In this document: positions 16,239-50,983 of the stretch, piece after piece
Layout of the letters: the number at the start of each line of letters is the position of its first letter
Position numbering within the stretch: position 1 is the first letter of the stretch
DNA from: Theionarchaea archaeon
GTDB taxonomy: Archaea; Methanobacteriota_B; Thermococci; Methanofastidiosales; SZ-28-30
Direction of reading: 5' to 3'
Length of the DNA: 64,000 bases
Assembly (NCBI GenBank): GCA_018992685.1
Contig: JACVGT010000019.1
Span: forward strand, 64,001-128,000
Program-made: the position numbers and the translations under genes
Notes under the pieces: generated by a model
Database searches by the model: none
Told to the model about the DNA's origin: nothing
What the model saw: only the letters and a program-made list of their open reading frames with translations

Positions 16239-17306
16239 ATGGTATGGCGCTACCTTGAAGTCAGAGAACGTGATGTGCCCAGATGCAATGCAATCCATGC
16301 TGTTCTGGCAAAGGGCATCAATCAGGGAATAACCCCCAATACTGTCTTTCTGGAGGAATGTCCAGACTATGTTCTATCTCTGGGAAGAAACCAATGTCCT
16401 GAGGAGGAAATACACATTGAAGCATGCAGAGCCCTGAATGTGAAGATTGAGCGCAGGGACACAGGAGGAGGAGCAGGGCTCATGGTCCCCGGTTCTACCT
16501 CATGGGGAGTCTGTGTTGATATTGCAGATCCTCTGGTCTCCCATGACATGAATGAAAACATGAGAAGGTTTTCTGAAGGAGTTGTGAGAGGTCTTCAGAT
16601 TTTAGGACTGAACGCCTACTTTTCCCCTGTCAATGATATTGACGTTGATGGAAAAAAAATAGGGGGAATCACTGCCCTGGTGAGAGGGAAGGCTCTCCTG
16701 ATTTATGGATCAGTGATTGCAGATTTTGACGCAGAGAAGTGGACACACGTCTCAAGGGCCCCGCCCATAAAGCTAGAGAAAAAGGGCGTTTCCTCAATAA
16801 GAAAGAGAATGACCACCCTCACGCAAGAACTGGGTGGAACGACCCCCCCTTCACAGGTTCGGGAAGCTCTTGTCAAGGGATATGAAGAAAGTCTTCATGT
16901 CACCCTGGAGAAGAAAGGGCTGTCTCCCGCTGAACTGGAGATTTGGGAAAAAGAAATCAAGCGGTTTTCTTCGCCAGATTTCGTCTTGAGACCCCGACAT
17001 CCATGTAGGCTGCGGCTGGGAAAATACGTACATCCTGCAGAAAAAGGGATTATCATTGTTTCTGTGTACCTGCTCGAGGGGAAGATAGCTGATCTCGGCA
17101 TATCGGGAGATTTCATGCAGATTTCTGATTTCGACTTTGAAGAACTGACAGGCCACCTCTTTGGCCTCCCCGCAGAAAAGGAGTGTATTTACACGGCAGT
17201 TACAAATTTCTTCCAAAAGAAGAACGCAACTCTCCTGGGAGTCACCCCGGAAGACTTTGCACAGGCAATCACTGGTGCTGTATCATCGTTTCAAGAAGAT
17301 GAGTGA
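16239..17306 (+). CDS. lplA: Lipoate-protein ligase A (catalytic plus C-terminal domain)
   Basis: SLGRNQ, RRDTGGGA, NDIDVDGKKIGG, C-terminal ISGDF. Confidence 0.9.
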   Translation: MVWRYLEVRERDVPRCNAIHAVLAKGINQGITPNTVFLEECPDYVLSLGRNQCPEEEIHIEACRALNVKIERRDTGGGAGLMVPGSTSWGVCVDIADPLVSHDMNENMRRFSEGVVRGLQILGLNAYFSPVNDIDVDGKKIGGITALVRGKALLIYGSVIADFDAEKWTHVSRAPPIKLEKKGVSSIRKRMTTLTQELGGTTPPSQVREALVKGYEESLHVTLEKKGLSPAELEIWEKEIKRFSSPDFVLRPRHPCRLRLGKYVHPAEKGIIIVSVYLLEGKIADLGISGDFMQISDFDFEELTGHLFGLPAEKECIYTAVTNFFQKKNATLLGVTPEDFAQAITGAVSSFQEDE

Positions 17307-17727
17307 TCAGACGTGCAGCCTCAGGAATCGCCTTCTGGACGGGTTCTGTCGGTGACTCAGAAAAGGTCTCTGTGTCCTGAACCTCAATTCCCACCACGAC
17401 GATGCGAGAAGGCATTTCCCCAGGAAAGAGGGTCTTCCCCAGGTTGATGGCTTCAGAGAACGACACATCATGGCTGGAAGACGTGTGAAGCGCCCCTGAG
17501 ATCTGTGATTCATTCAGAACAGAAATAGTCCCTGGAGGGTTACCAAGCTTTACTGCATCCACTACGATCACCACGTCATATCCCAGAATGTGGTCCAGCA
17601 AGGAAAATCCACCAACAGACGCCTCCACCACATTTGCCGGGACATCCTCCAGTTCTCTCACGGTAAGAATCCCCACGGCATCATCACTCAAAATGGGATT
17701 TCCAATGCCCATAACAAGTATTTTCAT
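17269..17727 (-). CDS. Hydrogenase maturation protease
   Basis: GIGNPILSDDAVG, VDAV, SSHD. Confidence 0.92.
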   Translation of the reverse strand: MKILVMGIGNPILSDDAVGILTVRELEDVPANVVEASVGGFSLLDHILGYDVVIVVDAVKLGNPPGTISVLNESQISGALHTSSSHDVSFSEAINLGKTLFPGEMPSRIVVVGIEVQDTETFSESPTEPVQKAIPEAARLITHLLETMIQHQ

Positions 17728-31327: not shown

Positions 31328-32560
31328 ATGAAGGGTCCTTTAAGTATTGGAATTGGATTTAGTGACACTGGCGATGCTGAAAAAGCAGCAAAAGACGCAC
31401 AAGAGATGGCAGGAACGAAAATTGGCTTTGCTATTCTGTTCTCCTCCTCTCACTATGATCCCACCAAGGTATATGAGGACACATCCTCAGTGTTCAAAGA
31501 CGCAAACATCATTGGGTGTACGACAGCAGGCGAACTGTGCAACCTGGCAAAGAATACTACCACAGATTCTGTGGCTGTTCTGGGCATCGGTGGAGCTCGT
31601 ATGCGAACAGCAGTGGGTGTGGGAACTGGTCTCTCACAACGAGGAGAGCAGGCAGGTGCAGAGGCTGCTACTTCAGCGTATCAATCTTTGAATTTTGATC
31701 CTTATACCATGTTTGTGGGAATGATGCATAAGACGCCTCTTGACCTGGTTAAGATGAAGATGTTCTTGAATGTCATCATACCAGACGGTCTTTCTGCAGG
31801 GGAAGAGAATTTTCTGAGAGGACTGGTAACAGTGACAGGACGAAATTCTCCCATAATTGGCGGTTCTGCTGGAGACGATCTCGACCTGAAGAAGACATAC
31901 CAATTCGGCAATGGAGTGTACAGTGATGCAGGAGTCCTGGGAGTTATTACCGGGGGCATCAAGCTGGGAACTGCTATCGGAAACAGTTATGTCCCTGTCT
32001 CGGGGAAAGGAGCCGCAGTGACCAAGTCCAAAGGGAGAACAGTTCAGGAGTTTAACAACAGACCCGCAGGTGAGGTGATGAAAGAACTGCTGGGCGTTGA
32101 CGAGCTGACCTTTGACCTCAATGCACAGAAACCCCTGGGATTCAAGAGTGTGGATGTCTCCAATGAGTATGTGATACGCAGCATCAGCCAGGAGAACCCT
32201 GATGGGAGTCTGAATTTCTTTTCTGAGATTCCTCAGGGTGTGTACTTCAGCGTTATGGAGACTAACAAAGAACTCCTGGAAAAGCGATTCAGTGAGACAC
32301 TGAGAAAGGCTTTATCTGACGCTGGGAATCCCAAGGAAGTGGGCGCTGTGGTAGTATTCAATTGTATTTACAAGCACCTTGCCAACGTCCGGTGCGGGTG
32401 CAATGACTTTTCTGTCATACGAGAAGAACTGGGAAGGGATGTTCCAGTAATTGGGTTCAATACGTATGGTGAGCAAGGCTCAACCTCAGGAGGCGCAGTG
32501 GGACATCACAACCAGACCTCATCGCTCATGATTATTGGGAATGAGCTGGTATCACAGTGA
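31328..32560 (+). CDS. Stand-alone FIST (FIST-N plus FIST-C) sensory protein
   Basis: IGCTTAGE, IIGGSAGD, FNC, GFNTYGEQ, HHNQT; SD aggtga. Confidence 0.9.
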   Translation: MKGPLSIGIGFSDTGDAEKAAKDAQEMAGTKIGFAILFSSSHYDPTKVYEDTSSVFKDANIIGCTTAGELCNLAKNTTTDSVAVLGIGGARMRTAVGVGTGLSQRGEQAGAEAATSAYQSLNFDPYTMFVGMMHKTPLDLVKMKMFLNVIIPDGLSAGEENFLRGLVTVTGRNSPIIGGSAGDDLDLKKTYQFGNGVYSDAGVLGVITGGIKLGTAIGNSYVPVSGKGAAVTKSKGRTVQEFNNRPAGEVMKELLGVDELTFDLNAQKPLGFKSVDVSNEYVIRSISQENPDGSLNFFSEIPQGVYFSVMETNKELLEKRFSETLRKALSDAGNPKEVGAVVVFNCIYKHLANVRCGCNDFSVIREELGRDVPVIGFNTYGEQGSTSGGAVGHHNQTSSLMIIGNELVSQ

Positions 32561-35847: not shown

Positions 35848-36784
35848 ATGAAATCAATCGAAGACGCTGTCAGATTCAGGTATTTGAATATACGCACTGA
35901 CAGGTCACGAGCTATCCTGAAGATACAACACGTACTCATAGGCGCCCTGAGAGAGTTCCTCACAGAACATGGATTCTGCCAGATTCTGGCACCTGTGGTG
36001 GGTCCAGTTACTGATCCGGGTATCAGAGGGGCTGGCATCGTTCACTTTGATTTTTATGGAACGTCCTACGCCATTATGAGCAGTATGATTCTGTACAAGC
36101 AAATGGCTTTGGGCGCTTTTGAGAGCATTTTTTCTCTGTCACCCAATGTGCGGCTTGAGGAAGCATCCACCATTGACACCGGAAGGCATCTGGCTGAATT
36201 CTACCAGCTTGACCTTGAGTCTGCCAGGAAGAGTTGCCAGGAGATGATGGACCTGGGAGAAGGAATGATATGTCACTCTATGGACGCAATACGAGAATGC
36301 TCGGAGGAACTGGATACCCTGGGCAGACATCTTCCTTCTTTACACCCCCCCCTTCAAGAGGATAGCCCATAGAACACTTGAAGAACAGCTGTCCATACAC
36401 GGTGAAATACCGTTTGAGAAAGAATATGATCTTTCCAGGGCTTCTTCAGAACCATTTTGGATCTATGATTATCCTGTGGGGTCTCGAGGGTTTTACTACC
36501 TGGAAAAAGATGGGGTTCTCAAGTCCATGGATTTGATCATGCCTGAAGGGTTTGGAGAAGTCATCTCCGGGGGAGAACGAGAGGTTAGATATGAGGAAGT
36601 GAGAAGGCTCCTCACGAAAGAGGGAATTGCTGATGAGTACTCCTGGTATCTGGATATGTTGAAGGCAGGTGTCCCGCCTTCAGCAGGATTTGGGTTGGGC
36701 ATTGAACGGTTTACACGCTATGTGTGCGGGCTGGACCACATCTGGGAGAGTTCCCCCTTCCCAAAAGTTCCCGGTATTCCATAA
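35848..36784 (+). pseudogene. asnA: Archaeal asparagine synthetase A (AsnRS-like), split by a +1 frameshift at a C8 run (36345-36352)
   Basis: SMILYKQ, SPNVRLE, TGRHLAEFYQLDLE in frame 1. Removing one C gives LHPPFKRIAHR...PFWIYDYP...GEVISGGERE...SAGFGLGIERF...FPKVPG. Confidence 0.85.
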
Positions 36785-39655: not shown

Positions 39656-40168
39656 TCAGATAGGCTGAGAAGCCTCAATAGCCTCTCGGGCAAATTGGTC
39701 CTTCTTGCATGATATACAGTAAGATTCAATGTTGTTCCTGTCCTTATCAAGGAGTCCGACCTTTTCTATCTTCTTTCTGATCTCTTCCATGTGTCTCCTG
39801 GTAGTAATCACTTTCCCACATCCCTGACACAGGATAAGGTCATGTTCAATCTCATCATAGGACTCTGCCCTGTTTAAGGTGGCCATTTCAAACTTCTGGG
39901 TAAGGTTGATCCCCTCCCAGGGGCAGATATCCTGGCAGCTCCGGCAAAAAATGCACAACCCATGGTCGATTCTCATGGTCCTGGTCTTTTTCTCATCTAC
40001 AATGGTGATGGCCTTTGGGGGGCACACCGCAGCGCAGGCGCCGCACCCAACGCACTCATCGGTGAACTCTGTCCTCCCTCTGAATCCTTCAGGGGCTGGA
40101 GAAGGCTCAAACGGATATTTTACTGTAAAAGGTTTCTTAAACAAGGAAAATAGTGCTTCAAGTTCCAT
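39656..40168 (-). CDS. Membrane-bound hydrogenase Fe-S subunit (MbhN/NuoI-like)
   Basis: T.KYPF, CVGCGACAAVCP, CIFCRSCQDICP plus extra CxxC pairs. Confidence 0.9.
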   Translation of the reverse strand: MELEALFSLFKKPFTVKYPFEPSPAPEGFRGRTEFTDECVGCGACAAVCPPKAITIVDEKKTRTMRIDHGLCIFCRSCQDICPWEGINLTQKFEMATLNRAESYDEIEHDLILCQGCGKVITTRRHMEEIRKKIEKVGLLDKDRNNIESYCISCKKDQFAREAIEASQPI

Positions 40169-41052
40169 TAAATCACCACCCTTACGAGATCAATGACTGC
40201 CAGAACCGCCATGTATTTCCAGAAGAAAACAAAACTCTGTTCTGTCTTCACCCTGGCTGAAATGACCTTGATAAAAATGAACAGGAGCCACAACAGCCCA
40301 CCAGTAATCAAGAACATCCACCAGTTCTGCCAGAAGAACAGGATAACTACCAGAGAGATCACCGTAAACACTTTGACCTGGTTGGAAAGGGTGAAAATTG
40401 CCAACCTGTACCCGGAGTACTCCACCAGAGGTCCTCCCAGAATTTCCTGTTCGGCTTCTGGTATGTCGAAGGGTTGCAACCCGATCTTGGCGGGTACAAT
40501 GCTCAAGAAGGCAATGCAGGCAAAGGGAAGCTGGTAGAACAACATGCCGTGAACTTCCTGGGCCTCAGCTATTCCTGTCAAGGAAAAACTGCCTGCCCTC
40601 ACTGCCACCGCCACAATGGAAATTGCCAGGGGCAGTTCATAGGCAAAGAGCTGGGTTACTTCTCTCGATCCTCCCACAGCGCCAAAGGGGCTGGCTGAAG
40701 AAAATCCTCCAACTGCCAGCATGATTGACGACATGTTCAGCACATAAATGACCACAATCACATCGCCAGCAAAGGACAGTCCCCACACCGGGAACAGCAT
40801 GGGCACCACCAGGATAGAAGCCAGAGCAATGATGGGAGCCCAGGTGAACAGAGCGCCCGCTTTCTCAGGCCTAACACTGTCTTTGGACAGTAACTTCACG
40901 AAATCATAGAAGGGCTGCAAAAATGGTGGGCCACGTCTGTTCTGCATGCGTGCTCTCACCTTTCGGTACATCCCTGCATACAGGAACGTCATCACCGAGG
41001 TGAATAACAGCCCCGGAATGATGAAAATCGAAATCAATGGATTGAGACTCAT
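40168..41052 (-). CDS. Membrane anchor subunit (MbhM/NuoH-like)
   Basis: ARMQNRRGPP..QPFYDFVKL, PFDIPEAEQE..GPLVEYSG. SD aggtga overlaps the upstream stop. Confidence 0.92.
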   Translation of the reverse strand: MSLNPLISIFIIPGLLFTSVMTFLYAGMYRKVRARMQNRRGPPFLQPFYDFVKLLSKDSVRPEKAGALFTWAPIIALASILVVPMLFPVWGLSFAGDVIVVIYVLNMSSIMLAVGGFSSASPFGAVGGSREVTQLFAYELPLAISIVAVAVRAGSFSLTGIAEAQEVHGMLFYQLPFACIAFLSIVPAKIGLQPFDIPEAEQEILGGPLVEYSGYRLAIFTLSNQVKVFTVISLVVILFFWQNWWMFLITGGLLWLLFIFIKVISARVKTEQSFVFFWKYMAVLAVIDLVRVVI

Positions 41053-41056
41053 GATA

Positions 41057-42142
41057 TCACCTATCCGTACAGCAGAAACACGGGTCAATGCTTGCCAGCG
41101 TAATAGGAACGTCACCCAGGGTGTCCCCCTCCAGCATCACCGGGACTGCCTGTACATTGGCATATGTGGGGGCACGTATTTTCACCCGCTCAGGATAAAA
41201 GGTGCCGTTGGACCTGACATAGTGGAACACTTCTCCGCGAGGAGCTTCGTATCTTCCAACTCCTTCGCCAGGTGGGATTTCTTTCACTGGAACTGCTATT
41301 TCCTTTCCCTTCAACCCCTTGAGAGCTGCTACTGCCTGTCTGATGATTTTCACTGATTCGAAAACCTCAAGGAGCCTGACTTTTGCCCTGGCCATATTAT
41401 CTTCTTCATCCAGGACGATTTTCTCGAAGTCCACTCTATCATATGCAAGGTGTGGATCATCCTTCCTCACATCAACAGCATAGCCTGACGCTCGGGCCAG
41501 AGGACCTACTGTACACAGCCTCCGTGCATCGTCTCTGGGCAGTGTCCCAGTTCCTACCAGTCGTGCTCTGATGGTCCTGTTTCTCAGGAAAGAATCAATG
41601 TAGTGTTCTGTCCTGCGCTCCACAACCTCGAGAGCGGTCAGCAGACCCGGGATCTGCTTTTCAGTGATGTCCTTCCTGCATCCTCCAACAGTATTCCATG
41701 CGTAATGGTTCCTGTTACCCGTTATTGTTTCAAGCTGATCCAGAACGAATTCTCTGTCTCTCCACGTGTACATGAACAGTGTTTCAATCCCTATTATTTC
41801 AGCAGCTATTCCCGCCCACAACAAGTGGGAGTGAATCCTTTCCAGCTCAGCAATGATCATCCTCGAGTATTCAGCTCTTTCAGGCAGTGTGACACCAGCA
41901 ATGTCCTCTACTGCCTGTGTGAATGCCAGAGGATGGGACATGGAACAGATGCCGCAGATTCGTTCCACCAGTAGTATGTCCTGTTCATAGGTTTTTCTTT
42001 CTGCAAGCTTCTCTACGCCTCTGTGGTTGTATCCCATGGTAATATCTACGTTGATGACTTTTTCTCCTTCTGCATACACTTTCAAGCGCTCAGGTTCTGC
42101 CAGAGCCAGGTGCTGGGGTCCAAATTGTACAACGACATCCAT
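41057..42142 (-). CDS. Group-4 [NiFe]-hydrogenase large subunit (MbhL/EchE-like)
   Basis: GPQH, HRGVEK, L1 ERICGICSMSH, L2 DPCFCCTDR then stop. Confidence 0.95.
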   Translation of the reverse strand: MDVVVQFGPQHLALAEPERLKVYAEGEKVINVDITMGYNHRGVEKLAERKTYEQDILLVERICGICSMSHPLAFTQAVEDIAGVTLPERAEYSRMIIAELERIHSHLLWAGIAAEIIGIETLFMYTWRDREFVLDQLETITGNRNHYAWNTVGGCRKDITEKQIPGLLTALEVVERRTEHYIDSFLRNRTIRARLVGTGTLPRDDARRLCTVGPLARASGYAVDVRKDDPHLAYDRVDFEKIVLDEEDNMARAKVRLLEVFESVKIIRQAVAALKGLKGKEIAVPVKEIPPGEGVGRYEAPRGEVFHYVRSNGTFYPERVKIRAPTYANVQAVPVMLEGDTLGDVPITLASIDPCFCCTDR

Positions 42143-42143
42143 T

Positions 42144-42563
42144 TCAATACCTCCTCAAAGGATATTCTGTATAGTCATCAGGAAGGAACAGGTGCCGGGG
42201 ATCGGGGTGATTGACCACAATGATACCCATCATTTCCATGGCTTCCCTCTCGTACCAGGCTGCAGATGGGTAGAAATCAGATATGGTCTCAATCCTGGGA
42301 TTTCCCCGTGGAGCAGACGTCTTCAGGCTCACCTGCAGGGGGGTAATCTCGAAGTGATAGACCAGTTCCAGCTCTTCGCCCAGGTCCACAGAAGAGATCA
42401 CTGAGAGGTGGCCTCCCATATCCTGAAAGAGCTTGACTGCCTGTCTGTGGGATCCATTCTGCACCTTGATAAATACTCTGTTTCTCCGCGTCGGGGTAAC
42501 CTCCAGCACATTCTCCCTGAGATGAGTTCTCAACATTTCTTTCAACTCCGGAACAGTGACCAT
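42144..42563 (-). CDS. MbhK/NuoC-like subunit
   Basis: AWYEREAMEMMG...HPDPRHLFLPDD..YPLRR. Confidence 0.9.
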   Translation of the reverse strand: MVTVPELKEMLRTHLRENVLEVTPTRRNRVFIKVQNGSHRQAVKLFQDMGGHLSVISSVDLGEELELVYHFEITPLQVSLKTSAPRGNPRIETISDFYPSAAWYEREAMEMMGIIVVNHPDPRHLFLPDDYTEYPLRRY

Positions 42564-42992: not shown

Positions 42993-44809
42993 TAAACCAC
43001 CCTCCACAAATACACGATCACCACAACAAGAGTGAATACTACCCAGAACACGTAGTTCTGCAGCAGTCCGCTGTGTTCAGATTTCAGGTACCGGTAGAAT
43101 CGGCCAAGCGGAGCCATGATACCATAGTACAGGTTTGAACCACCTATATTGACATAGTAGTCTTCTTCCCCACAGATATATACGTCGTCTCTGGCATCAG
43201 GCTTCTTGTCTGATTTGTCTGATTCTGGCGCCAACGCTTTCCCTGTCCTTAGGGTCAAGAACACAAAGGCCATGAGAAACAGCAGTACCAGCGAGATCAT
43301 GACAGGACTCCAGTACGCATATTCAAGGTTCAACCCCAGGTTGTAGGCACCCACGTCCACCGGGACACCCAGGAGGGAAGAGGACGCTTTCCCTACCAGC
43401 GTCAGAGGCAGCCTGGGGTAGACGCCAAATATGATGCATGTTACCGCAAGGATACCCATGGGGACCTTCATCAGGAAGGGAACATCTTTCACCTCTCTGA
43501 ATTCCTCTTTGAGCTGGCCCAGGAATGCAGAGTCCAGAGCCTTCAAGAACGAGCTCAAGGTGCCAACACTGGCCAGGATCAGGACTACGGTGAAAAAGTA
43601 GTACTCCTTCTGGTAGGTACCCACGTAAAGCATCCACTTGCTGACGAACCCATTGAAGGGAGGGACTCCTGAAATTGCCAGCGCCCCTATGAAAAAGCAG
43701 AACGTGGTAAAAGGCATCTTCTTGGAAAGTCCACCCATCCTGTCAAGGTCCCACGTGCCAATCCGGTAGAAAACAGCCCCTGCACACAGGAAGAGGAGCC
43801 CTTTGTATACGGCATTGTTCATGAGATGGAACAGCCCTCCTGAGACTCCCAGAGGTGTCGCCAGTCCGATACCTGCTATAATATAGCCGAGCTGGGAGAC
43901 AGCGTGATAGGACAGCAGCCGTTTGAAGTCGTGCTGCACCAGAGCCATCATGACACCCACGAAGGCTGTAATCACGCCGAAGGTTGCAATCATAGGGCTC
44001 GTGGCATCCATGGCATCAAACACCACGTACAGGACACGGGCAAGAAGATAGACACCAGCCACCTTGAAGGTACCTGCCAGGAGCATGCCCGTGGGAGTGG
44101 GAGCTGCAGGGTAACTGTCAGCAGCCCAGAAATGGAGCGGTACAATCCCTGCCTTGAATCCGAATCCCACAACAAAGAATGCCAGAGCAACAATGTCCAC
44201 AGATGACATGACGATCTTTGACGTGAGGTCCACCATGTTCAGAGTCTGGTACTGGGCATACAGCAGTGCCACTCCAAACAGGATAAACGTGGATACGACA
44301 CCACCCAACGTCAACAACTTGAAAGCAGCTTCCGCTGAATCCCATTTTCTGTGATATGACACCAGAGCATAGGTGGAAACTGACATGATCTCAAAGAAGA
44401 CGTACAGGTTAAACATGTCCCCTGTGAGGACGACACCTGAAATTCCTGCAATCTGGAGACAGAACAGCGTGTAAAACTTTCCTCTGCGGGGATCTTTCCT
44501 CATATAGGGGACAGCATACAGTGCAGAGAAAGAAGCCATTCCTGCTGCCACGCACGCTGCAAAGAGGGATAGTGCGTCAACATACAAGGTAATACCATAG
44601 GGGGGGCTCCTGTTACCCAGTGCATAGACAATCACATCACCAGAGAGAACCTGCGATATCATGGTCAGTCCGCATACCAGGCTCCCTACAAACGCCAGGA
44701 AGGGAATGTAATCCCGCAGCCGGCCTGACCCCAGTCCTACAAGGGGAGTTATGAACGCTGCAGACAGAGGCAGCAAAACCATGAAAATGGGTGCATGTTC
44801 AGTAATCAT
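42992..44809 (-). CDS. Antiporter-like subunit MrpD/MbhH with an MbhI-like C-terminal extension
   Basis: DMFNLYVFFE, KAGIVPLHFW, KRLLSYH, PPFNGFVSKW, then YICGE...HSGLLQNYVFW. Confidence 0.9.
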   Translation of the reverse strand: MITEHAPIFMVLLPLSAAFITPLVGLGSGRLRDYIPFLAFVGSLVCGLTMISQVLSGDVIVYALGNRSPPYGITLYVDALSLFAACVAAGMASFSALYAVPYMRKDPRRGKFYTLFCLQIAGISGVVLTGDMFNLYVFFEIMSVSTYALVSYHRKWDSAEAAFKLLTLGGVVSTFILFGVALLYAQYQTLNMVDLTSKIVMSSVDIVALAFFVVGFGFKAGIVPLHFWAADSYPAAPTPTGMLLAGTFKVAGVYLLARVLYVVFDAMDATSPMIATFGVITAFVGVMMALVQHDFKRLLSYHAVSQLGYIIAGIGLATPLGVSGGLFHLMNNAVYKGLLFLCAGAVFYRIGTWDLDRMGGLSKKMPFTTFCFFIGALAISGVPPFNGFVSKWMLYVGTYQKEYYFFTVVLILASVGTLSSFLKALDSAFLGQLKEEFREVKDVPFLMKVPMGILAVTCIIFGVYPRLPLTLVGKASSSLLGVPVDVGAYNLGLNLEYAYWSPVMISLVLLFLMAFVFLTLRTGKALAPESDKSDKKPDARDDVYICGEEDYYVNIGGSNLYYGIMAPLGRFYRYLKSEHSGLLQNYVFWVVFTLVVVIVYLWRVV

Positions 44810-45156
44810 TCTTTCAACCCCCTGATTTCTGTAATGTCCAGGGTGCCATAATGTCGGTAGAGGACAATAGCTATACTCAAGGCAAGAGCAGTGACACTGA
44901 GCCCGATGACAATGCTGGTCAGCACCAGTGCCTGGGGCAAGGGATCTACCATGACAGCAGTTTCAGAGGTTACGTCAGGCAGGACCACAATGGGAGGTGA
45001 CCCGCCCTGAACGTACCCTGTGGCAATAAGGAAATATTGAACCGCATAGTCCATCAGACTGAGTCCCACCACGATTTTGATGAGATTCTTCTTTACCATG
45101 ACAGCATACAATCCAATGACAAATACAATAGTGCAGACGATATAGTCGATATTCAT
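44806..45156 (-). CDS. MrpC/MbhG subunit
   Basis: NLIKIVVGL, DPLPQALVLTSIVIG. Confidence 0.92.
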   Translation of the reverse strand: MNIDYIVCTIVFVIGLYAVMVKKNLIKIVVGLSLMDYAVQYFLIATGYVQGGSPPIVVLPDVTSETAVMVDPLPQALVLTSIVIGLSVTALALSIAIVLYRHYGTLDITEIRGLKE

Positions 45157-45581
45157 GGGGGACTCCTCCTCATGTTGTTGAAAATGGCTGTCAGCTCTGT
45201 CCCCACTTTAACACCAATTGCAATGTAGATCGGACCCAGAATCCCTGCGCTGAGCAACGTTCCTGGTTGTCCCAGTCCAACAGCATTCCACAGGAAATTT
45301 CCTCCTTTCAGTATGCCAATACACCCGAGGCCAATGAAACACAAGGCTGCTACACTTTCGAGAGCAGTCATCACTGATTCGGGAATTCTCAGTGTGCCAA
45401 ATCCCAGGTAGAGCAGGATGATGCTTGAAGCAATGATGGTACCTCCCTGAAACCCACCTCCAGGTGTCAGATGGCCATGAACAAAGATATAGACCCCATA
45501 CACAAAAGCCAGGGGGAAAACCACGCGGGTTATGCTCTTCACAATGACACTGGGTTCGCGGGGGTCCTCATTCTTTTTCAT
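45153..45581 (-). CDS. MrpB/MbhF subunit
   Basis: GHLTPGGGFQGG. Confidence 0.92.
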   Translation of the reverse strand: MKKNEDPREPSVIVKSITRVVFPLAFVYGVYIFVHGHLTPGGGFQGGTIIASSIILLYLGFGTLRIPESVMTALESVAALCFIGLGCIGILKGGNFLWNAVGLGQPGTLLSAGILGPIYIAIGVKVGTELTAIFNNMRRSPP

Positions 45582-45849
45582 TGTCTTCCCTCCGCTTCCT
45601 CCAGAATAGTGCAGCCACTCCTGTCGTCGCAGTGAACAGGACAGTGACTTCTCCCAGCGTGTCATATCCTCTATAGTCCAGCACAATATTCGTCACCAGG
45701 TTGGTGGCTCCGGCTTCTTCAAGTCCGTCTTCCAGGTAGTGCTCTCCGACCCCGATAGAATGGTCTCCAAACCTGTTGACACCAGTAACTGTGTAGATCA
45801 GAACTGACATCAGTAATCCCAGCAAGAGATAGCTCAGTGCACGCTTCAT
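45568..45849 (-). CDS. MbhE-like subunit
   Basis: NLVTNIVLDYRGYDTLGE. Confidence 0.9.
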   Translation of the reverse strand: MKRALSYLLLGLLMSVLIYTVTGVNRFGDHSIGVGEHYLEDGLEEAGATNLVTNIVLDYRGYDTLGEVTVLFTATTGVAALFWRKRREDNEKE

Positions 45850-46082
45850 TCTTCTGACCTCCGGGTATGGCTAATGGCTAAAAGCAGGATAAATGTGGAC
45901 AGAGCAGCCCCAATAGCAACTTCTGTCATGGCTACATCTGGAGCCTGCAGCTGATAGAAGAGTAAAGCCAGGCACAGGCTGCACATCCCCAGAGACACGG
46001 CTGTATATATCAGATCTTTGAACTCTACGGCCACCAGCGCACTGGCAGCAAAGAGCACCAGCAAGATGAGATGTGAGATCAT
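45846..46082 (-). CDS. MbhD-like subunit (DUF4040)
   Basis: APDVAMTEVAIG. Confidence 0.9.
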   Translation of the reverse strand: MISHLILLVLFAASALVAVEFKDLIYTAVSLGMCSLCLALLFYQLQAPDVAMTEVAIGAALSTFILLLAISHTRRSEE

Positions 46083-46405
46083 TCAAACTCCTCCTTGAAC
46101 GCGTCATAACTCCCGATTTTCATGCGGGTTCCTGATCTGTATGCAGCCCGGGCTATTGCATGGGCAGATGTTGGATTTCCCAGGACAATGAAGACGATGA
46201 TAATGACAGCTTTGATGGCCACTTCTCCCTGCATGAGGAGTGCCACACCCAGAAGCGTGCACATGGCACCCAGCGTGGTGCATTTGGTGGCTGCATGCAT
46301 CCGGGTGAACATGTCGGGAAGTCGAAGCAATCCAATAGCACCCACCAGGAGAAAGAAGGTGCCTATTGCGATGAGAATATCTGCGATGAGAGTTCCTGCC
46401 ATCAT
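46079..46405 (-). CDS. MrpG/MbhC subunit
   Basis: RLPDMFTRMHAATK, PTSAHAIARAA. Confidence 0.92.
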   Translation of the reverse strand: MMAGTLIADILIAIGTFFLLVGAIGLLRLPDMFTRMHAATKCTTLGAMCTLLGVALLMQGEVAIKAVIIIVFIVLGNPTSAHAIARAAYRSGTRMKIGSYDAFKEEFE

Positions 46406-46665
46406 AATCCTCCCTCCAAGTAACGTGCAATGGCAATAACAGCAATAAAACTCAGCAGCGCGTAGATAATTGCCACATCTATCAACCACGTTCTATTATA
46501 GACAACGCCAAGAACAACCAGGAGAGCAGTAGTAATGGTGGTAGCAGCATCCAGAGCAATGACCCGGTCCCCTGCTGTAGGACCTTTCACGGCTCTCAAG
46601 AATGAAAGCAGAAATGCGAAAGAAATGACAAATACTGCACCCTGCAGAAAAGAGAGTTCCATCAT
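46402..46665 (-). CDS. MrpF/MbhB subunit
   Basis: KGPTAGDRVIALD. Confidence 0.92.
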   Translation of the reverse strand: MMELSFLQGAVFVISFAFLLSFLRAVKGPTAGDRVIALDAATTITTALLVVLGVVYNRTWLIDVAIIYALLSFIAVIAIARYLEGGL

Positions 46666-47153
46666 GAAAACACCTTGTTCAAGAATCTCATGAATCGGCC
46701 AGTAATCATCTCTGCAGCTTCCTGTGGGTTATACGTTTGAATGTTCAGCCAGTGCACATAGAAATTAGTGCCCACAACGTCCAGCGTAAGGGTCCCGGGA
46801 GTCAGAGTAATTGAATTTGCCAGAAGAGTCCTTCCGTAGTCTGACTGCAGGGATACAGGTACCCGGACGATTCCTGGGTTTATGGGCATTCTCGGATGGA
46901 GCACTCGATAGGCCACATCAAGGTTGGATTTGATGATCTCCCAGAGCAGGGCAGGGATATACACGAGGAAGAAGACCACTCTCCTGGGATGAAGGCTCAC
47001 AGCAGGGAACAGGTTCCTGGACAGGACTGCCACGATGAAAGCTGCAAGCAACCCCACTGCAAGAGGAGGATACCCCTGTTCCTGGATTTCAGACCAGGTC
47101 AGAAGAACCCACAGGATCAACGTTGCGATGAATGCAGAGATACATTGCTTCAT
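46662..47153 (-). CDS. MrpE/MbhA subunit
   Basis: NLDVA, LANSITLTPGTLT, YVHWL. Confidence 0.92.
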   Translation of the reverse strand: MKQCISAFIATLILWVLLTWSEIQEQGYPPLAVGLLAAFIVAVLSRNLFPAVSLHPRRVVFFLVYIPALLWEIIKSNLDVAYRVLHPRMPINPGIVRVPVSLQSDYGRTLLANSITLTPGTLTLDVVGTNFYVHWLNIQTYNPQEAAEMITGRFMRFLNKVFS

Positions 47154-47157
47154 AGGT

Positions 47158-48336
47158 TCACCTCAGAACTTCCACCACTTTGGTAGAGTCCATTTCCACT
47201 CTAATACCCGCGTCAGCCAGTTGATTCCGTACTGAAGGGGTTATAAACGGCATTGTTCCCATGATCACAGGGATCTTTTGTGACGCCAGTGCAAGAGCAG
47301 CTGTCAACATCCTGGGGTCTCTCCACCTGGGCATGAGGACCGTGAGGGCTCGTATCCCCAGGAGTTTTGCCGGCTCGCAGCATCCCGCATTGATCACACA
47401 GGGGACCTGGAATTCGTTCATGAGAGCACATTGATGATCAGGATGTTCCAGCAGGCCACATGTCAAGTTCAGAACCATGAATTTCTGGCTGATCAACTGG
47501 TGAACGATGGCATCGAGGTTCCAGGTGCTCTTTCCAGACGCACAGCCCATGATTGCCACCACTCCCGCAATGAGACCAGAATCCACCGCCTTGTTGAGTG
47601 TTTCAGTGTCCACAGGATAACCCACTGTTGCACGTCGAGGAGTAACCTTTCTGAACGATGCCTGGTCCCTCCTGGAGAAATTTTCAACAGCAGTCTCACA
47701 GGCAGCAGCCACATCTCCACCTTGATACACATAGTCTATCATGTCGCCCGCTTCTTCAAGAATGTCAATTCCACCCAGCAGGGGAATCCCGAAATTCGAG
47801 GCAGCTTCCGCCCCTTCACACAGGGCACCTACAAGGTTAATCCCTCTGGCAGTGCGTCCCCTGGCCAGATCCCTCATTTTCTGACTTCTGGCCTGCTTTA
47901 TTATGTCAGGAGAGTATACAGTGGTCACAATGTTCACTGCGTCCTTCTGTAAGACTCCAAGGCCAGACTCAACATTCCGAGGTTTTTTCTGATCTGACTG
48001 CCACTGGCCAACCAGCGTCTGCGAAGGTTCCAGAATGGAACCACTGGCTTTCACCAGATCCTGAATAGTAACCCCTGCCTCATGGGTGTGAATCATCCTA
48101 TCTAGTGAAAGAGGCACAGAGATTCCCACTCCATAATCAGTCAATCCCTTGAGGACATGCAGTCCCAGGTTCACAACATTCATACCTTCTGCATCAATCC
48201 CACAGGCCCCCACGTGGGGTTCTTCATCAAAAGGGTTTACAATACATGGCCCTAAATCACAATACGTACACATCATACCGGCAGAAGCCAGCTCATTCTG
48301 AGGCTTCTGAGCCTGTAATCGATCCATTGTTTTCAT
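47158..48336 (-). CDS. Miniaturised, degenerate anaerobic CO dehydrogenase (CooS/HCP superfamily) homologue
   Basis: DRLQAQKPQ...CTYCDLGPCIVNPF...GACG, ESGLGVLQKDAVNI, GINLVGALCEG, AVENFSRR, GVVAIMGC, AGCC; only 392 aa. Confidence 0.85.
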   Translation of the reverse strand: MKTMDRLQAQKPQNELASAGMMCTYCDLGPCIVNPFDEEPHVGACGIDAEGMNVVNLGLHVLKGLTDYGVGISVPLSLDRMIHTHEAGVTIQDLVKASGSILEPSQTLVGQWQSDQKKPRNVESGLGVLQKDAVNIVTTVYSPDIIKQARSQKMRDLARGRTARGINLVGALCEGAEAASNFGIPLLGGIDILEEAGDMIDYVYQGGDVAAACETAVENFSRRDQASFRKVTPRRATVGYPVDTETLNKAVDSGLIAGVVAIMGCASGKSTWNLDAIVHQLISQKFMVLNLTCGLLEHPDHQCALMNEFQVPCVINAGCCEPAKLLGIRALTVLMPRWRDPRMLTAALALASQKIPVIMGTMPFITPSVRNQLADAGIRVEMDSTKVVEVLR

Positions 48337-48797
48337 GCCTTTCCTCTCCTCTCTTTCATGATCTGTGAAAACTCACCATATACGAGAGCATTGGTGGGGC
48401 AGGCACGGACACATGCGGGTCCTCCTACATTCCTGCACAGGTCACACTTTACCATTATCTGTCCACGGGAATCAGGTTCAATGATTCCAATGGGACAGGC
48501 CACACTGCACGATCTGCACCCGATACACAGACCATCATCGATAACCACGATGCCATCGTCTCCCTTTTCAATGGCGTCCACCGGGCAGGCTTCCATGCAG
48601 GGAGGAACCTCACAGTGACGGCAGCTGAGCACAACAGTCTGTGTATTATCACCCTTCAGGAAAATCCGAGTCTTGGGAAGAAGAGGTGCAGTAAGAGCCT
48701 GGTATACCGTGTCTGCATGCTTCCATGCCATGGAACATGCTACTTCACAATTGCGGCAAGCCACACATCGCTCTGAATCATAATAAAGTGCTTTCAT
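48333..48797 (-). CDS. CooF/HycB-like 4x[4Fe-4S] ferredoxin
   Basis: CVACRNCEVAC, CRHC..PCMEACP, CIGCRSCSVACP, KCDLC...PACVRACP. Confidence 0.92.
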   Translation of the reverse strand: MKALYYDSERCVACRNCEVACSMAWKHADTVYQALTAPLLPKTRIFLKGDNTQTVVLSCRHCEVPPCMEACPVDAIEKGDDGIVVIDDGLCIGCRSCSVACPIGIIEPDSRGQIMVKCDLCRNVGGPACVRACPTNALVYGEFSQIMKERRGKA

Positions 48798-48835: not shown

Positions 48836-49351
48836 CATGAAAACACATGTCCTCCGTGGACCCCCATGTCTCCCCTCTCATCGGGCAATAGTATCCTAGA
48901 ATCTGTATTTATCGTGTGGATGTGCCTTGTCAAATCCATGGTACCTCCTCACAGCCAGGTAGCCCACGCTGCTTCTGTATCTTGCCAGGCTATCGATTTC
49001 AGCACAGACAATGATCTGGAAAAGTGTCAACGAAAGAAGAGAAAGCATTCTCCTGGGTGTGAAAGATTACGATACGATTCCTGGGTTGAAAGGTATTGCC
49101 TGTTCCCGCCCCAGGTTCGACAGCATGCCACGGATTATCAGTATCTGTAGAACCCAACTCCTGAACGTGGGTAGAGAATGGTTACGAGCTTCTTTCCCTC
49201 AAGAAGTATGACTACTCCTCTTTCAGTCTCAGCTGGGCGATCACTCATAGGGCAGGCCTCGCACCCTGACCGGGGAAAAGTTTTTATGCTCACCTCCATC
49301 ATGTAATAACGCTAAGAGTTATTGATTAACAACATCGGCCCGAGGCACACC

Positions 49352-50152
49352 ATGAGCAAAGAACTGCTGATCCAGAAAGGCAAAGAAATGCTGCTCGAAA
49401 CGGGAGCCAAAGCTCTGCTGTTGTATGTTGAATCAGATTCAGATTTGGGACTTGCGCCTGAGAACACCATTTTTGTGTATGACAACAAGAAGTTCAGTGA
49501 AATTGATGACACGGGAGTTCTCATTCCACTGAACGTAAGTCCTGAAGAGAGAATGAACCTCGCTATTGCCGGAGCCATGGAAAAAGGCCTGCTCCACAAG
49601 AATGACAAAGTGATATACGTGAATAATAACAGTATTTCATTAAAAACAGCGAAAGAACAAATGGATAAAGGGATATACAAGATCCTGTTCACTGCCGCAA
49701 ATATTGACCCTGACGTGGTCAAAGAAGTCCTGGAAATCGCTGTTGAATTGGGGAAGAAAGGGCGAGAAGGAAAGCCTGTAGGAAGCACCTTCATCATTGG
49801 AGACTCAGGAGAAGTCATGAACAGGTCAACTCAGATCACATACAATCCCTTTCAGGGGAGCATGGTCAATATTCAGGACGACGTGGTGCGCAGCATGATA
49901 AAGGAGTATTCAAGGTTGGATGGAGCTTTTATCATTAGTGGCAAAGGGAAGATCATTGCGGCAGCACGATTTCTTGAATGCGGAAAGGAAGGAATCAAGA
50001 TGCCCAAAGGATTGGGTGCTCGTCACATGGCTGCAGCATGGATAACCAAGAAGACAGATAGCATTGGTGTTGTCCTCTCAGAATCAGATAATATGATTCG
50101 TGTCTTCTGGGACGGTGAGATGATTGAAGAGCTCGATCCTGAGAAGTTGTAG
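49352..50152 (+). CDS. dacZ: Diadenylate cyclase, DacZ type
   Basis: GREGKPVG, LDGAFII, GLGARHMAAA, VLSES; next to mscS. Confidence 0.85.
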   Translation: MSKELLIQKGKEMLLETGAKALLLYVESDSDLGLAPENTIFVYDNKKFSEIDDTGVLIPLNVSPEERMNLAIAGAMEKGLLHKNDKVIYVNNNSISLKTAKEQMDKGIYKILFTAANIDPDVVKEVLEIAVELGKKGREGKPVGSTFIIGDSGEVMNRSTQITYNPFQGSMVNIQDDVVRSMIKEYSRLDGAFIISGKGKIIAAARFLECGKEGIKMPKGLGARHMAAAWITKKTDSIGVVLSESDNMIRVFWDGEMIEELDPEKL

Positions 50153-50155
50153 GAG

Positions 50156-50983
50156 GTGATGCTGATTTCATTTATTGAGGAATGGTTTGGACAAGTGATC
50201 AATCAACTGGAAGAACTGATCCCTCGACTGGTTAAATTCCTGGGAATCCTCATAGTCGCCTATATTCTGGGGAGAATTCTCGCCTGGCTGGTAGCCACAA
50301 TTCTTCGCAAACTGGAGTTTGAGCGGCTGACCAAGAAATCAGAGGCAGAGAGAATTGCACGACGATTCGGCATGTCGTTAATTGGACTGATTGGATCGGT
50401 TGTGAAGTGGACCATTTATCTGATCGGGCTGCAGGTGGCTGTTGAAGCTGCTGGTCTTGATATTCTCAATCGGTTGATGCGGGGGATTGTCAGTTACATG
50501 CCCAACCTCATTCTGGCTCTAGCTATCTTCATTGTGGGAATACTGATAGCTGAGAAAGTGGGCAACTTTGTGCAGGGTCTGGCCGAAGATGAAAAGGTTC
50601 CTCGATTCTGGATCCTGGGAAACCTTGTGCGGTACACAATATATCTGGTCGTAATGATTATGGCCCTCTCACAACTGAAGATATCCACTGATGTCCTGAT
50701 AATCGTTACCGGTTCGATCTTTGCTGCCATCGGGTTGATTGTAGTCATTAGTTTGAGAGATGTTGGACCAAACGTTGCTGCAGGGATCCATTTGCTGTAC
50801 GAAAAGACATTGAACGTCGGAGATACAGTCAAAGTCGGCCGGTATGAAGGGATCATTGAAGATATTGGCATTGTGAAATCTATCATAAAGAATGAAGAGG
50901 GAGAGTTCATTGTCATCCCCAACTCACAGTTGATGAGAAGCATCATAATAAAGAAACTGTCTCCTGAAGAAGCACTGGAGTAG
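50156..50983 (+). CDS. mscS: Small-conductance mechanosensitive channel
   Basis: TM-helix repeats, NVAAG, VGDTVKVG..EG.IEDIG, IPNS. Confidence 0.88.
   Translation: MMLISFIEEWFGQVINQLEELIPRLVKFLGILIVAYILGRILAWLVATILRKLEFERLTKKSEAERIARRFGMSLIGLIGSVVKWTIYLIGLQVAVEAAGLDILNRLMRGIVSYMPNLILALAIFIVGILIAEKVGNFVQGLAEDEKVPRFWILGNLVRYTIYLVVMIMALSQLKISTDVLIIVTGSIFAAIGLIVVISLRDVGPNVAAGIHLLYEKTLNVGDTVKVGRYEGIIEDIGIVKSIIKNEEGEFIVIPNSQLMRSIIIKKLSPEEALE

Follow-up and report, generated by a model that had tools for sequence, protein, structure and literature searches.

The question raised by this locus is what a carbon monoxide dehydrogenase (CODH)-like protein does in a hydrogenase operon when part of its nickel-iron active site is gone. 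The locus lies in a 64,000-nucleotide (nt) stretch of DNA from Theionarchaea archaeon (assembly GCA_018992685.1, contig JACVGT010000019.1, forward-strand positions 64,001 to 128,000), called the window below, and encodes P0001, a CooS-like protein of 392 amino acids (aa). CODH is among the oldest and most studied metalloenzyme scaffolds, and the Theionarchaea, widespread in sediments, have yet to be brought into culture. The original prediction, made from the letters of the window, was a miniature CooS with the B-cluster kept, the D-cluster lost and the C-cluster remodelled under selection. That observation is confirmed and its interpretation is partly supported: judged by its alignments, P0001 is a much-shortened CODH relative that has lost part of the Ni-Fe active site.

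The favoured reading, to which we give a probability of roughly 0.45, is that P0001 is a redox module derived from CODH, with a remodelled and probably nickel-free C-site, and forms the electron-entry end of a chain running through a CooF-like ferredoxin into an Mrp-Mbh type [NiFe] hydrogenase. Its sequence and setting suggest that P0001 probably feeds the hydrogenase with electrons from a source other than CO. The architecture (a CODH fold with the B-cluster and a second Cys-rich site, encoded together with a CooF-like protein and a hydrogenase) is far better supported than the role of the C-site; we infer which cluster and metals P0001 holds, how the dimer is wired, that it contacts CooF and the hydrogenase, which way electrons run and that it is catalytic. 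The hydrogenase operon, an additional cysteine (Cys213) and a concerted set of His/Cys-to-Tyr changes shape the functional reading most, and none of the three was part of the original prediction.

Fold and cluster residues of P0001

P0001 matches the Pfam family PF03063 (Prismane/CO dehydrogenase) in three stretches (E 1.8e-22). The CooS equivalog model of NCBIfam, TIGR01702, is also matched in three separate stretches, with 90 bits, which is below its cut-off of 478. The PDB sequence search gave 37 matches at E <= 1, every one a CODH or CODH/ACS chain, with Carboxydothermus hydrogenoformans CODH-II at the top (E 3e-19) and CODH-V (7b7q) among the weakest (E 7e-4). An ESM Atlas search returned generic Prismane/CODH clusters and nothing else. 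The AlphaFold model, built on a 109-sequence alignment, has a mean pLDDT (predicted local distance difference test) of 93.8 and a pTM (predicted template modelling score) of 0.91; an earlier model from the family alone (25 sequences, pLDDT 65.3) was poor and was discarded. All Foldseek matches listed against the PDB are CODH or CODH/ACS structures (template modelling score on the query 0.77-0.86, identity 17-20 %). As modelled, P0001 has the three-domain CODH fold, with a likeness far above chance. It is about 244 residues shorter than canonical CooS owing to ten deletions of 12-42 residues (MAFFT alignment), and the N-terminal helical domain accounts for about 93 of the deleted residues.

Cluster residues were mapped on C. 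hydrogenoformans CODH-II in the chain numbering of 1su6_A/7zx6_X. The equivalents of Cys39 to Cys295, Cys446 and Cys476 were taken from the PDB sequence alignment to CODH-II; those of Cys333, Cys526 and Lys563 came from an hhalign comparison of the family profile (25 sequences) with 18 canonical CooS proteins (probability 99.9 %, 394 columns). Conservation counts refer to 25 family members, 56-86 % identical to P0001. The CODH-II residues named are those we take to be cluster ligands. The PDB titles of the mutants H93A, C295D and K563A agree in part with these ligand and catalytic residues, and the ligand role of Cys295 (PDB 1su6) is partly backed by PMC13240472.

The B-cluster is intact: Cys48, Cys51, Cys56 and Cys70 correspond to C23, C26, C31 and C45, each invariant in the family (25/25). 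Both cysteines of the D-cluster are replaced, Cys39 by Asn14 in every member and Cys47 by Met22 (Met in 20, Leu in 5). At the C-site, the equivalents of Cys295 (C173) and Cys526 (C320) are invariant, Cys446 is C265 (Cys in 23 members, His in 2) and Cys476 is C293 (Cys in 24, Tyr in 1). His261 is replaced by Y141 (Tyr in 23, Asn in 2), His259 by T139 and Cys294 by L172. Cys333 maps to Y204-D208, bordering a 42-residue deletion; hhalign and MAFFT disagree by about 4 residues here, but the range is Cys-free in both. Y204 is Tyr in 23/25 members, and its match to Cys333 depends on the aligner. P0001 therefore has four of the six residues of the complete C-cluster set (His261 and Cys295, 333, 446, 476 and 526). 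The cysteines and the histidine that the original prediction listed as kept or lost are those found here, and a proper alignment by either program does not restore the missing ligands.

Both acid-base residues are changed as well: His93 is Y68 and Lys563 is R342, each in 25/25 members, the latter being a conservative swap. The original prediction had the catalytic lysine region altered, and the lysine is indeed replaced; this is not a plain loss, however, as an invariant arginine stands in its place. It also had the HxxH region as absent; the alignment is poor there and allows no more than a rough check, and an invariant His85 lies in the same stretch. Three of the lost His/Cys positions (93, 261 and 333) are Tyr in 23-25 of the 25 members. 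Glu321, adjoining Cys320, is invariant, and so is Cys213 (25/25), in the helix just past the 42-residue deletion. Cys213, 40 residues past C173, was considered as the equivalent of Cys333, but both hhalign and MAFFT put it opposite a non-Cys residue and it is therefore a new cysteine. The original suggestion of a different, perhaps Ni-free Fe-S centre at the former C-site is plausible on this residue pattern.

Comparison with canonical CooS proteins (C. hydrogenoformans CODH-II, Desulfovibrio vulgaris CODH, Thermococcus sp. AM4 CODH) shows a common fold, B-cluster motif, Cys positions 295, 446, 476 and 526, and a CooF-type ferredoxin partner. The D-cluster cysteines, His261, Cys333, His93 and Lys563 are all present in the canonical proteins, whereas P0001 has none of them.

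To our knowledge, CODH-V is the sole characterised repurposing of the CODH scaffold, and it offers the precedent for putting the C-site to another use (PDB 7b7q). CODH-V (clade D; Jeoung 2022, as cited) has a C-site without the Ni-Fe cluster, and a change of Cys295 to Glu abolishes its CO/CO2 activity (PMC13240472, PMC13056359); its scaffold carries an iron-oxo hybrid cluster (PMC13240472). It is a full-length protein (629 aa) with a D-cluster and differs from canonical CODH chiefly by Glu at 295, whereas P0001 keeps Cys295 (25/25) and is without His261 and Cys333.

This precedent makes it conceivable that P0001 is a stress enzyme similar to CODH-V or to hybrid-cluster protein (HCP), reducing hydroxylamine, NO or peroxide and lying beside a hydrogenase by chance. 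Prismane proteins and CODH do share a Pfam family, the JGI label hydroxylamine reductase (hybrid-cluster protein) is attached to 6/26 clusters of the P0001 family, and the invariant Glu321 and the Tyr residues could serve as oxygen ligands. However, HCP is absent from the 37 PDB matches, from the NCBIfam matches (E <= 1) and from the Foldseek matches listed, the match to CODH-V is weak, and Cys295 is kept with no Glu in its place. The tight translational coupling of the gene within a respiratory hydrogenase operon at 3/3 loci is also unlike stand-alone stress genes, making such an enzyme very improbable.

Selection, family and the published mini-CooS

The P0001 gene is under strong purifying selection. 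Two loci were used for comparison: L001, from Theionarchaea, with a protein 86 % identical to P0001, and L002, from an uncultured Thermococci archaeon, with one 60 % identical. The Nei-Gojobori ratio of nonsynonymous to synonymous substitution (dN/dS) against L001 is 0.067, at a dS of 1.11 that is near saturation; against L002 synonymous sites are saturated and give no value. This lies inside the range of the neighbouring genes, 0.016-0.107 (NuoB 0.016, large subunit 0.044, MnhE 0.091, CooF 0.107, the last against L002). At the protein level P0001 changes faster than the hydrogenase large subunit: it shares 60 % identity with its L002 counterpart, where the large subunit shares 84 %, as one would expect of a subunit at the periphery.

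The ligand losses and the ten deletions relative to canonical CooS could be taken as signs of a decaying, functionless CODH remnant. The dN/dS value, 24 further full-length clusters with undisrupted frames, the confidently modelled compact fold and the conserved operon position all speak against decay, which is hardly credible. The original argument for selection rather than decay is thus borne out by the dN/dS, by site cysteines conserved in 23-25 of 25 members and by a gene order conserved at 3/3 loci.

A word-indexed search of 5.8 billion proteins with P0001 found 26 further clusters (E 1.6e-230 to 2.2e-118), 24 of them 390-397 aa long and the other two incomplete, at 330 and 337 aa. Intact homologues of similar length thus exist. 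The next match is a canonical CooS at E 3.6e-17. Five clusters carry an NCBI organism name, in every case a Theionarchaea metagenome-assembled genome. A HMMER profile search of 1.84 billion representatives gave 240 matches at E <= 1e-3 and just four at E <= 1e-30: the family representative, a 173-aa fragment, P0123 (396 aa) and P0124 (389 aa). A number of these proteins (P0003, P0010, P0012, P0014, P0016, P0020 and P0123) are publicly labelled hydroxylamine reductase or anaerobic CODH catalytic subunit, and the membership tests back neither name. The public labels 'hydroxylamine reductase' and 'anaerobic CO dehydrogenase catalytic subunit' on these short proteins are probably wrong, and such mislabels could make CO-oxidising or NO-detoxifying archaea look more numerous than they are.

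Ligands were tabulated for 112 sequences: 9 family members, 18 canonical CooS proteins and 85 of the 149 stored representative matches (380-700 aa; 64 were excluded by length). With 18 rows excluded as fragments or for want of the B-cluster or C-terminus, 94 rows entered a phylogeny (IQ-TREE quick search, LG+G4); P0317, described below, was not included. The nine family rows form one clade with a Shimodaira-Hasegawa-like approximate likelihood ratio test (SH-aLRT) support of 100, sister to P0123 + P0124 (SH-aLRT 99), and both are joined loosely to two proteins of 472-473 aa (SH-aLRT 89). The tree is unrooted with long branches, and supports only the claim that given groups are not the same clade.

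The original prediction left it undecided whether P0001 belongs to the short CooS variants mentioned before. The published mini-CooS (Techtmann 2012) conserves all 11 cluster cysteines and the histidine despite its short length (PMC3328121); Inoue 2022 assigned it to clade G (PMC8776680). In our data, proteins of 431-492 aa (P0183, P0140, P0258 and others) form a group with nearly all ligands. A search with P0183 recovered other members of the group and a Thermosinus carboxydivorans Nor1 'Prismane' protein, P0317 (482 aa, 50 % identical); group members are 42-50 % identical to each other and to P0317. Every ligand Cys and His261 are present in P0317, which, coming from T. carboxydivorans, is therefore the mini-CooS of Techtmann 2012.

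Like P0001, the published mini-CooS is a CooS shortened by internal deletions with a cooF gene adjoining. The likeness ends there: P0317 keeps the D-, B- and C-ligands, while P0001 is without two D-cluster and two C-cluster ligands, and the two proteins are about 25 % identical over 162 residues (in fragments, E 2e-7). The named members of the mini-CooS group are bacterial (Negativicutes, Syntrophales) and the P0001 family is archaeal by name. In the tree the short families stand on the canonical-CooS side of a branch (SH-aLRT 97) separating them from the mini-CooS group. Differing in ligands, identity and tree position, the P0001 family is not, on these comparisons, the published mini-CooS.

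The filters stated in four CODH surveys bear on this family. Proteins below 550 aa and 200 bits were removed in one survey (PMC6344411), those below 400 aa in another that also checked ligands (PMC8776680), a third required more than 400 aa and the key clusters (PMC13056359), and a fourth removed anything below 400 aa or with any change of a C-cluster Cys (PMC13240472). The P0001 family would be removed from all four. No description of it was found in the available parts of the literature on short CooS or on CODH and hydrogenases of Theionarchaea or Methanofastidiosa.

The sister family (P0123, P0124 and P0271-P0281) comprises 13 clusters of 363-404 aa, two of them NCBI-named Methanofastidiosa or Methanofastidiosia and one labelled 'anaerobic carbon-monoxide dehydrogenase catalytic subunit'. 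Its proteins are 28-33 % identical to the P0001 family and fall in the same length class. Residue counts here refer to 12 aligned proteins. As in P0001, the D-cluster is gone, the four B-cluster cysteines are present, position 93 is Tyr, and the Cys526 equivalent is followed by Glu. The rest of the site differs: Cys is lacking at the positions of C173, C213, C265 and C293 (0/12 each), invariant cysteines stand instead at those of V137, L186 and S270 (12/12 each), position 563 is Lys, and the position of N316 is His. The sister family thus has eight invariant cysteines, the four of the B-cluster and four others, and of these others just the Cys526 equivalent is common to the P0001 family. In the predicted dimer described below, V137, L186 and S270 adjoin interface residues facing the partner's B loop. 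This pattern suggests a swap of ligand sets between the families; since both have at least four conserved non-B cysteines with one in common, the site appears rebuilt rather than lost.

Other CooS-like proteins are also poor in ligands. P0166, P0177, P0211, P0224, P0240, P0264, P0145 and P0236 (421-553 aa) form a separate, well-supported group with the B-cluster only; Cys39 is Asp, and the C-site Cys positions hold Gly, Ser, Asn, Lys or Glu. Ligand-deficient CooS scaffolds are therefore widespread outside the P0001 family. P0268 and P0270 (472-473 aa) are intermediate: D- and B-clusters and Cys446, 476 and 526 are present, and His93, His261, Cys295 and Cys333 are changed.

Hydrogenase operon and electron path

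The P0001 gene is the second in a minus-strand operon, with a gene for a CooF-like ferredoxin on its 5' side and genes for an Mrp-Mbh type [NiFe] hydrogenase on its 3' side (Table 1). The stop codon of the CooF-like gene overlaps the P0001 start as ATGA, and the MnhE gene starts 4 nt past the P0001 stop. The CooF-like protein, 79 % identical in L002, has 16 cysteines in four CxxCxxCxxxC-type motifs and, judging from these, probably carries four [4Fe-4S] clusters; its NCBIfam matches, of the HydN/HybA/DmsB-like kind, are all under their cut-offs. The gene set of the hydrogenase is complete. The NuoB-like subunit has the proximal-cluster cysteines, and the large subunit keeps both CxxC pairs, one in an N-terminal RICGIC motif and the other in a C-terminal DPCFCC motif. 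The large subunit is 84-92 % identical in L002 and L001, with dN/dS 0.03-0.04. The layout is that of the Mrp-Mbh of Thermococcales. Gene order and gene sizes are the same in the window, L001 and L002, the three loci with readable context; the other 14 loci of the same genome scan are bacterial canonical CooS.

A Thermococcus CODH-Mbh type cluster is known, and clusters of CODH, CooF and energy-converting hydrogenase (ECH) generally resemble the P0001 operon in that CooF and a CooS-like protein are joined to a group-4 [NiFe] hydrogenase that has Mrp subunits. Ni-CODH genes in an ECH context have been described (PMC8776680). The P0001 operon differs from such clusters in that the defining C-cluster ligand set is incomplete and there is no cooC in the open reading frames (ORFs) scanned. 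The shared layout raises the possibility that P0001 is a true but atypical CO dehydrogenase, part of a compact CODH-CooF-Mbh system for CO-driven H2 production, in which Tyr141 would take the place of His261 and Cys213 that of Cys333. The four cysteines equivalent to 295, 446, 476 and 526 are there along with a fifth invariant one, the Lys-to-Arg change is conservative, and His93-to-Tyr also occurs in the published clade G (PMC6344411). On the other hand, two direct ligands are gone from their canonical positions, both acid-base residues are changed, and the TIGR01702 score is 90 bits against 478. Of the 70 ORFs in the window 69 were scanned, and none of these was recognised as a CooC-like nickel insertase, an ACS or a canonical CODH; CooC could be elsewhere in the genome. 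In CODH-V the single Cys295-to-Glu change is enough to abolish CO/CO2 activity (PMC13240472, PMC13056359). A CO dehydrogenase is therefore improbable.

The preferred reading, a remodelled redox module, depends on how the chains pair. Electrons from the C-cluster of canonical CODH go to the B-cluster of the partner chain, so a redox-active C-site requires a dimer. Homodimer prediction gave P0001 a score of 0.88, against 0.00 for the highest of 3 controls. Among proteins of solved structure, 20 of the 30 that form pairs of one chain reach the mark used, as does 1 of the 23 that are single chains; these counts are rough here, our own alignment having been used. The runs share at least 96 % of their contacts, and pLDDT in the partner is 90 or more. 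The B-cluster loop (24-32) contacts residues 337-341 and 361-364 of the partner, next to R342, and the residues flanking the C-site at 139, 172, 203, 205 and 268-269 are also in the predicted interface. In this prediction the B loop lies opposite the C-site of the partner, which is the canonical wiring.

Following this wiring, P0001 would be a CODH-like homodimer with a [4Fe-4S] B-cluster in each chain, the B-cluster loop of one chain facing the former C-site of the other. That site would hold a non-canonical, probably nickel-free Fe-S cluster bound by Cys173, Cys265, Cys293, Cys320 and possibly Cys213, in a pocket whose lining residues Tyr68, Tyr141, Tyr204 and Arg342 replace His93, His261, Cys333 and Lys563. 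With the D-cluster absent, electrons leaving the C-site would reach the B-cluster of the partner and go directly to the co-translated four-cluster CooF-like ferredoxin, then through the NuoI-like and NuoB-like subunits to the [NiFe] site, where proton reduction would be coupled to ion movement across the membrane. The substrate at the remodelled site would be something other than CO. The reverse direction, from H2 to substrate, is also possible. The cluster chain of CODH ends blindly at the C-site, and a cluster kept there under purifying selection is easier to account for if a reaction takes place at it than if it relays electrons.

The same residues can be read as a non-catalytic adaptor for electron transfer or docking, in which the B-cluster is accompanied by a plain [4Fe-4S] cubane or a purely structural second cluster and electrons go from a ferredoxin or other carrier through P0001 to the CooF-like protein and the Mbh hydrogenase. 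The loss of His261 and Cys333 together with three bulky tyrosines would close the open Ni/Fe1 sub-site. The sister family is conserved despite 0/12 cysteines at four of the five C-site positions, B-only scaffolds such as P0166, P0177, P0211 and P0224 are viable, and there is no substrate-related gene in the operon. Against an adaptor stands, first, the established CODH architecture, in which a relay cluster at the dead-end C-site would lack an onward partner. Positions 93 and 563 are invariant Tyr and Arg (25/25), more than a structural cubane seems to require. Thermococcales Mbh accepts electrons from ferredoxin without such a module, leaving the need for an adaptor unexplained. A role of this kind is possible but rather unlikely.

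Several observations weigh against the remodelled redox module that we prefer. The site cysteines are not all invariant: C293 is Tyr in one of the 25 members, and C265 is His in two. Four cysteines and three tyrosines in a closed pocket could, as the residues stand, make a plain cubane with no open site and no catalysis. The sister family has 0/12 at C173, C213, C265 and C293 and yet persists, and the exact ligand set of P0001 may, on that comparison, be dispensable for the wider short clade. The dimer result may reflect the model's memory of, or likeness to, solved CODH dimers. Genomic context covers three family members, and the neighbourhood offers no substrate candidate: the flanking DacZ, MscS and radical SAM proteins are unrelated.

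A more specific form of the redox-module reading would make P0001 an 'X : proton oxidoreductase', a catalytic head with a novel five-Cys Fe-S cluster and a Tyr/Arg pocket that acts on a non-CO small molecule and drives Mrp-Mbh. The Methanofastidiosa sister would then be a second, differently ligated version, and the CODH C-site would have been rebuilt more than once. We hold this form tentatively and regard it as doubtful.

In any of these roles P0001 represents a much smaller version of CODH under strong purifying selection, with a different ligand set and tied into a respiratory hydrogenase operon. If the site is catalytic, the Theionarchaea would possess a new substrate-coupled, hydrogen-evolving respiration, the protein would provide a minimal CODH scaffold for cluster engineering, and the length and ligand filters of the four surveys (PMC6344411, PMC8776680, PMC13056359, PMC13240472) would be hiding functional relatives.

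Operon genes and surroundings

Table 1. Genes of the P0001 operon, in order of transcription (coordinates in the window)
Feature	Coordinates	Strand	Basis
CooF-like ferredoxin, 154 aa, first operon gene	48333..48797	minus	Pfam Fer4_11 and related families
Short CooS-like protein P0001, 392 aa, ATG start	47158..48336	minus	ORF call and Pfam/NCBIfam/PDB matches
MnhE-type Mrp subunit (MbhA position)	46662..47153	minus	PF01899 E 1.9e-42
MrpF/PhaF-type subunit	46402..46665	minus	PF04066
MnhG-type subunit	46079..46489	minus	PF03334
78-aa ORF, position of small membrane subunit	45871..46107	minus	ORF call only
MbhE-type subunit	45568..45849	minus	PF20501
MnhB-domain subunit, start uncertain, overlaps preceding ORF	45153..45686	minus	PF04039
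NuoK/MnhC-like subunit	44806..45156	minus	PF00420
MnhD/NuoL-like antiporter subunit, 605 aa	42992..44809	minus	PF00361 E 7.8e-62
NuoB-like hydrogenase small subunit, 147 aa	42564..43007	minus	PF01058; NuoB family over cut-off
NuoC-like subunit	42144..42563	minus	PF00329
Group-4 [NiFe] hydrogenase large subunit, 361 aa	41057..42142	minus	PF00346 and PF00374
NuoH-like membrane subunit	40168..41115	minus	PF00146 E 2.8e-65
NuoI-like 2x[4Fe-4S] subunit, last operon gene	39656..40168	minus	Fer4 families; two CxxCxxCxxxCP motifs

The MnhG ORF overlaps the preceding gene, its Pfam match spans residues 39-117, and the L002 homologue has 103 aa. Because of the overlap and the position of the match, the real start of MnhG is probably later.

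A 168-aa ORF at 49312-49818 (minus strand) was considered as the first gene of the operon. It has no family match, lies antisense to a well-supported DacZ gene and is probably spurious. The DacZ-type diadenylate cyclase (49322-50152, plus strand) and an MscS-type channel (50156-50983, plus strand) are divergent from the operon and upstream of it. The pair is also found in L002 (905-1705 and 98-901, both minus strand), with no evident link to the hydrogenase.

A hydrogenase maturation endopeptidase is encoded at 17269-17727 (minus strand; TIGR00072 over cut-off). The large subunit of the operon ends right at its C-terminal Cys motif with nothing to cleave, so the endopeptidase probably serves another hydrogenase. 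About 7 kb past the far end of the operon, a 410-aa protein (31328-32560, plus strand) reaches 155 bits with the NosP model against a cut-off of 450 and is a possible gas or redox sensor. Two ORFs at 35848-36372 and 36476-36784 (plus strand) match an asparagine synthetase A / AsnRS-like profile at 27-197 and 245-349, respectively; the gene is apparently split, with a gap of about 100 nt. The window as a whole is archaeal in content, with topoisomerase VI, GGGP synthase, PCNA and DacZ.

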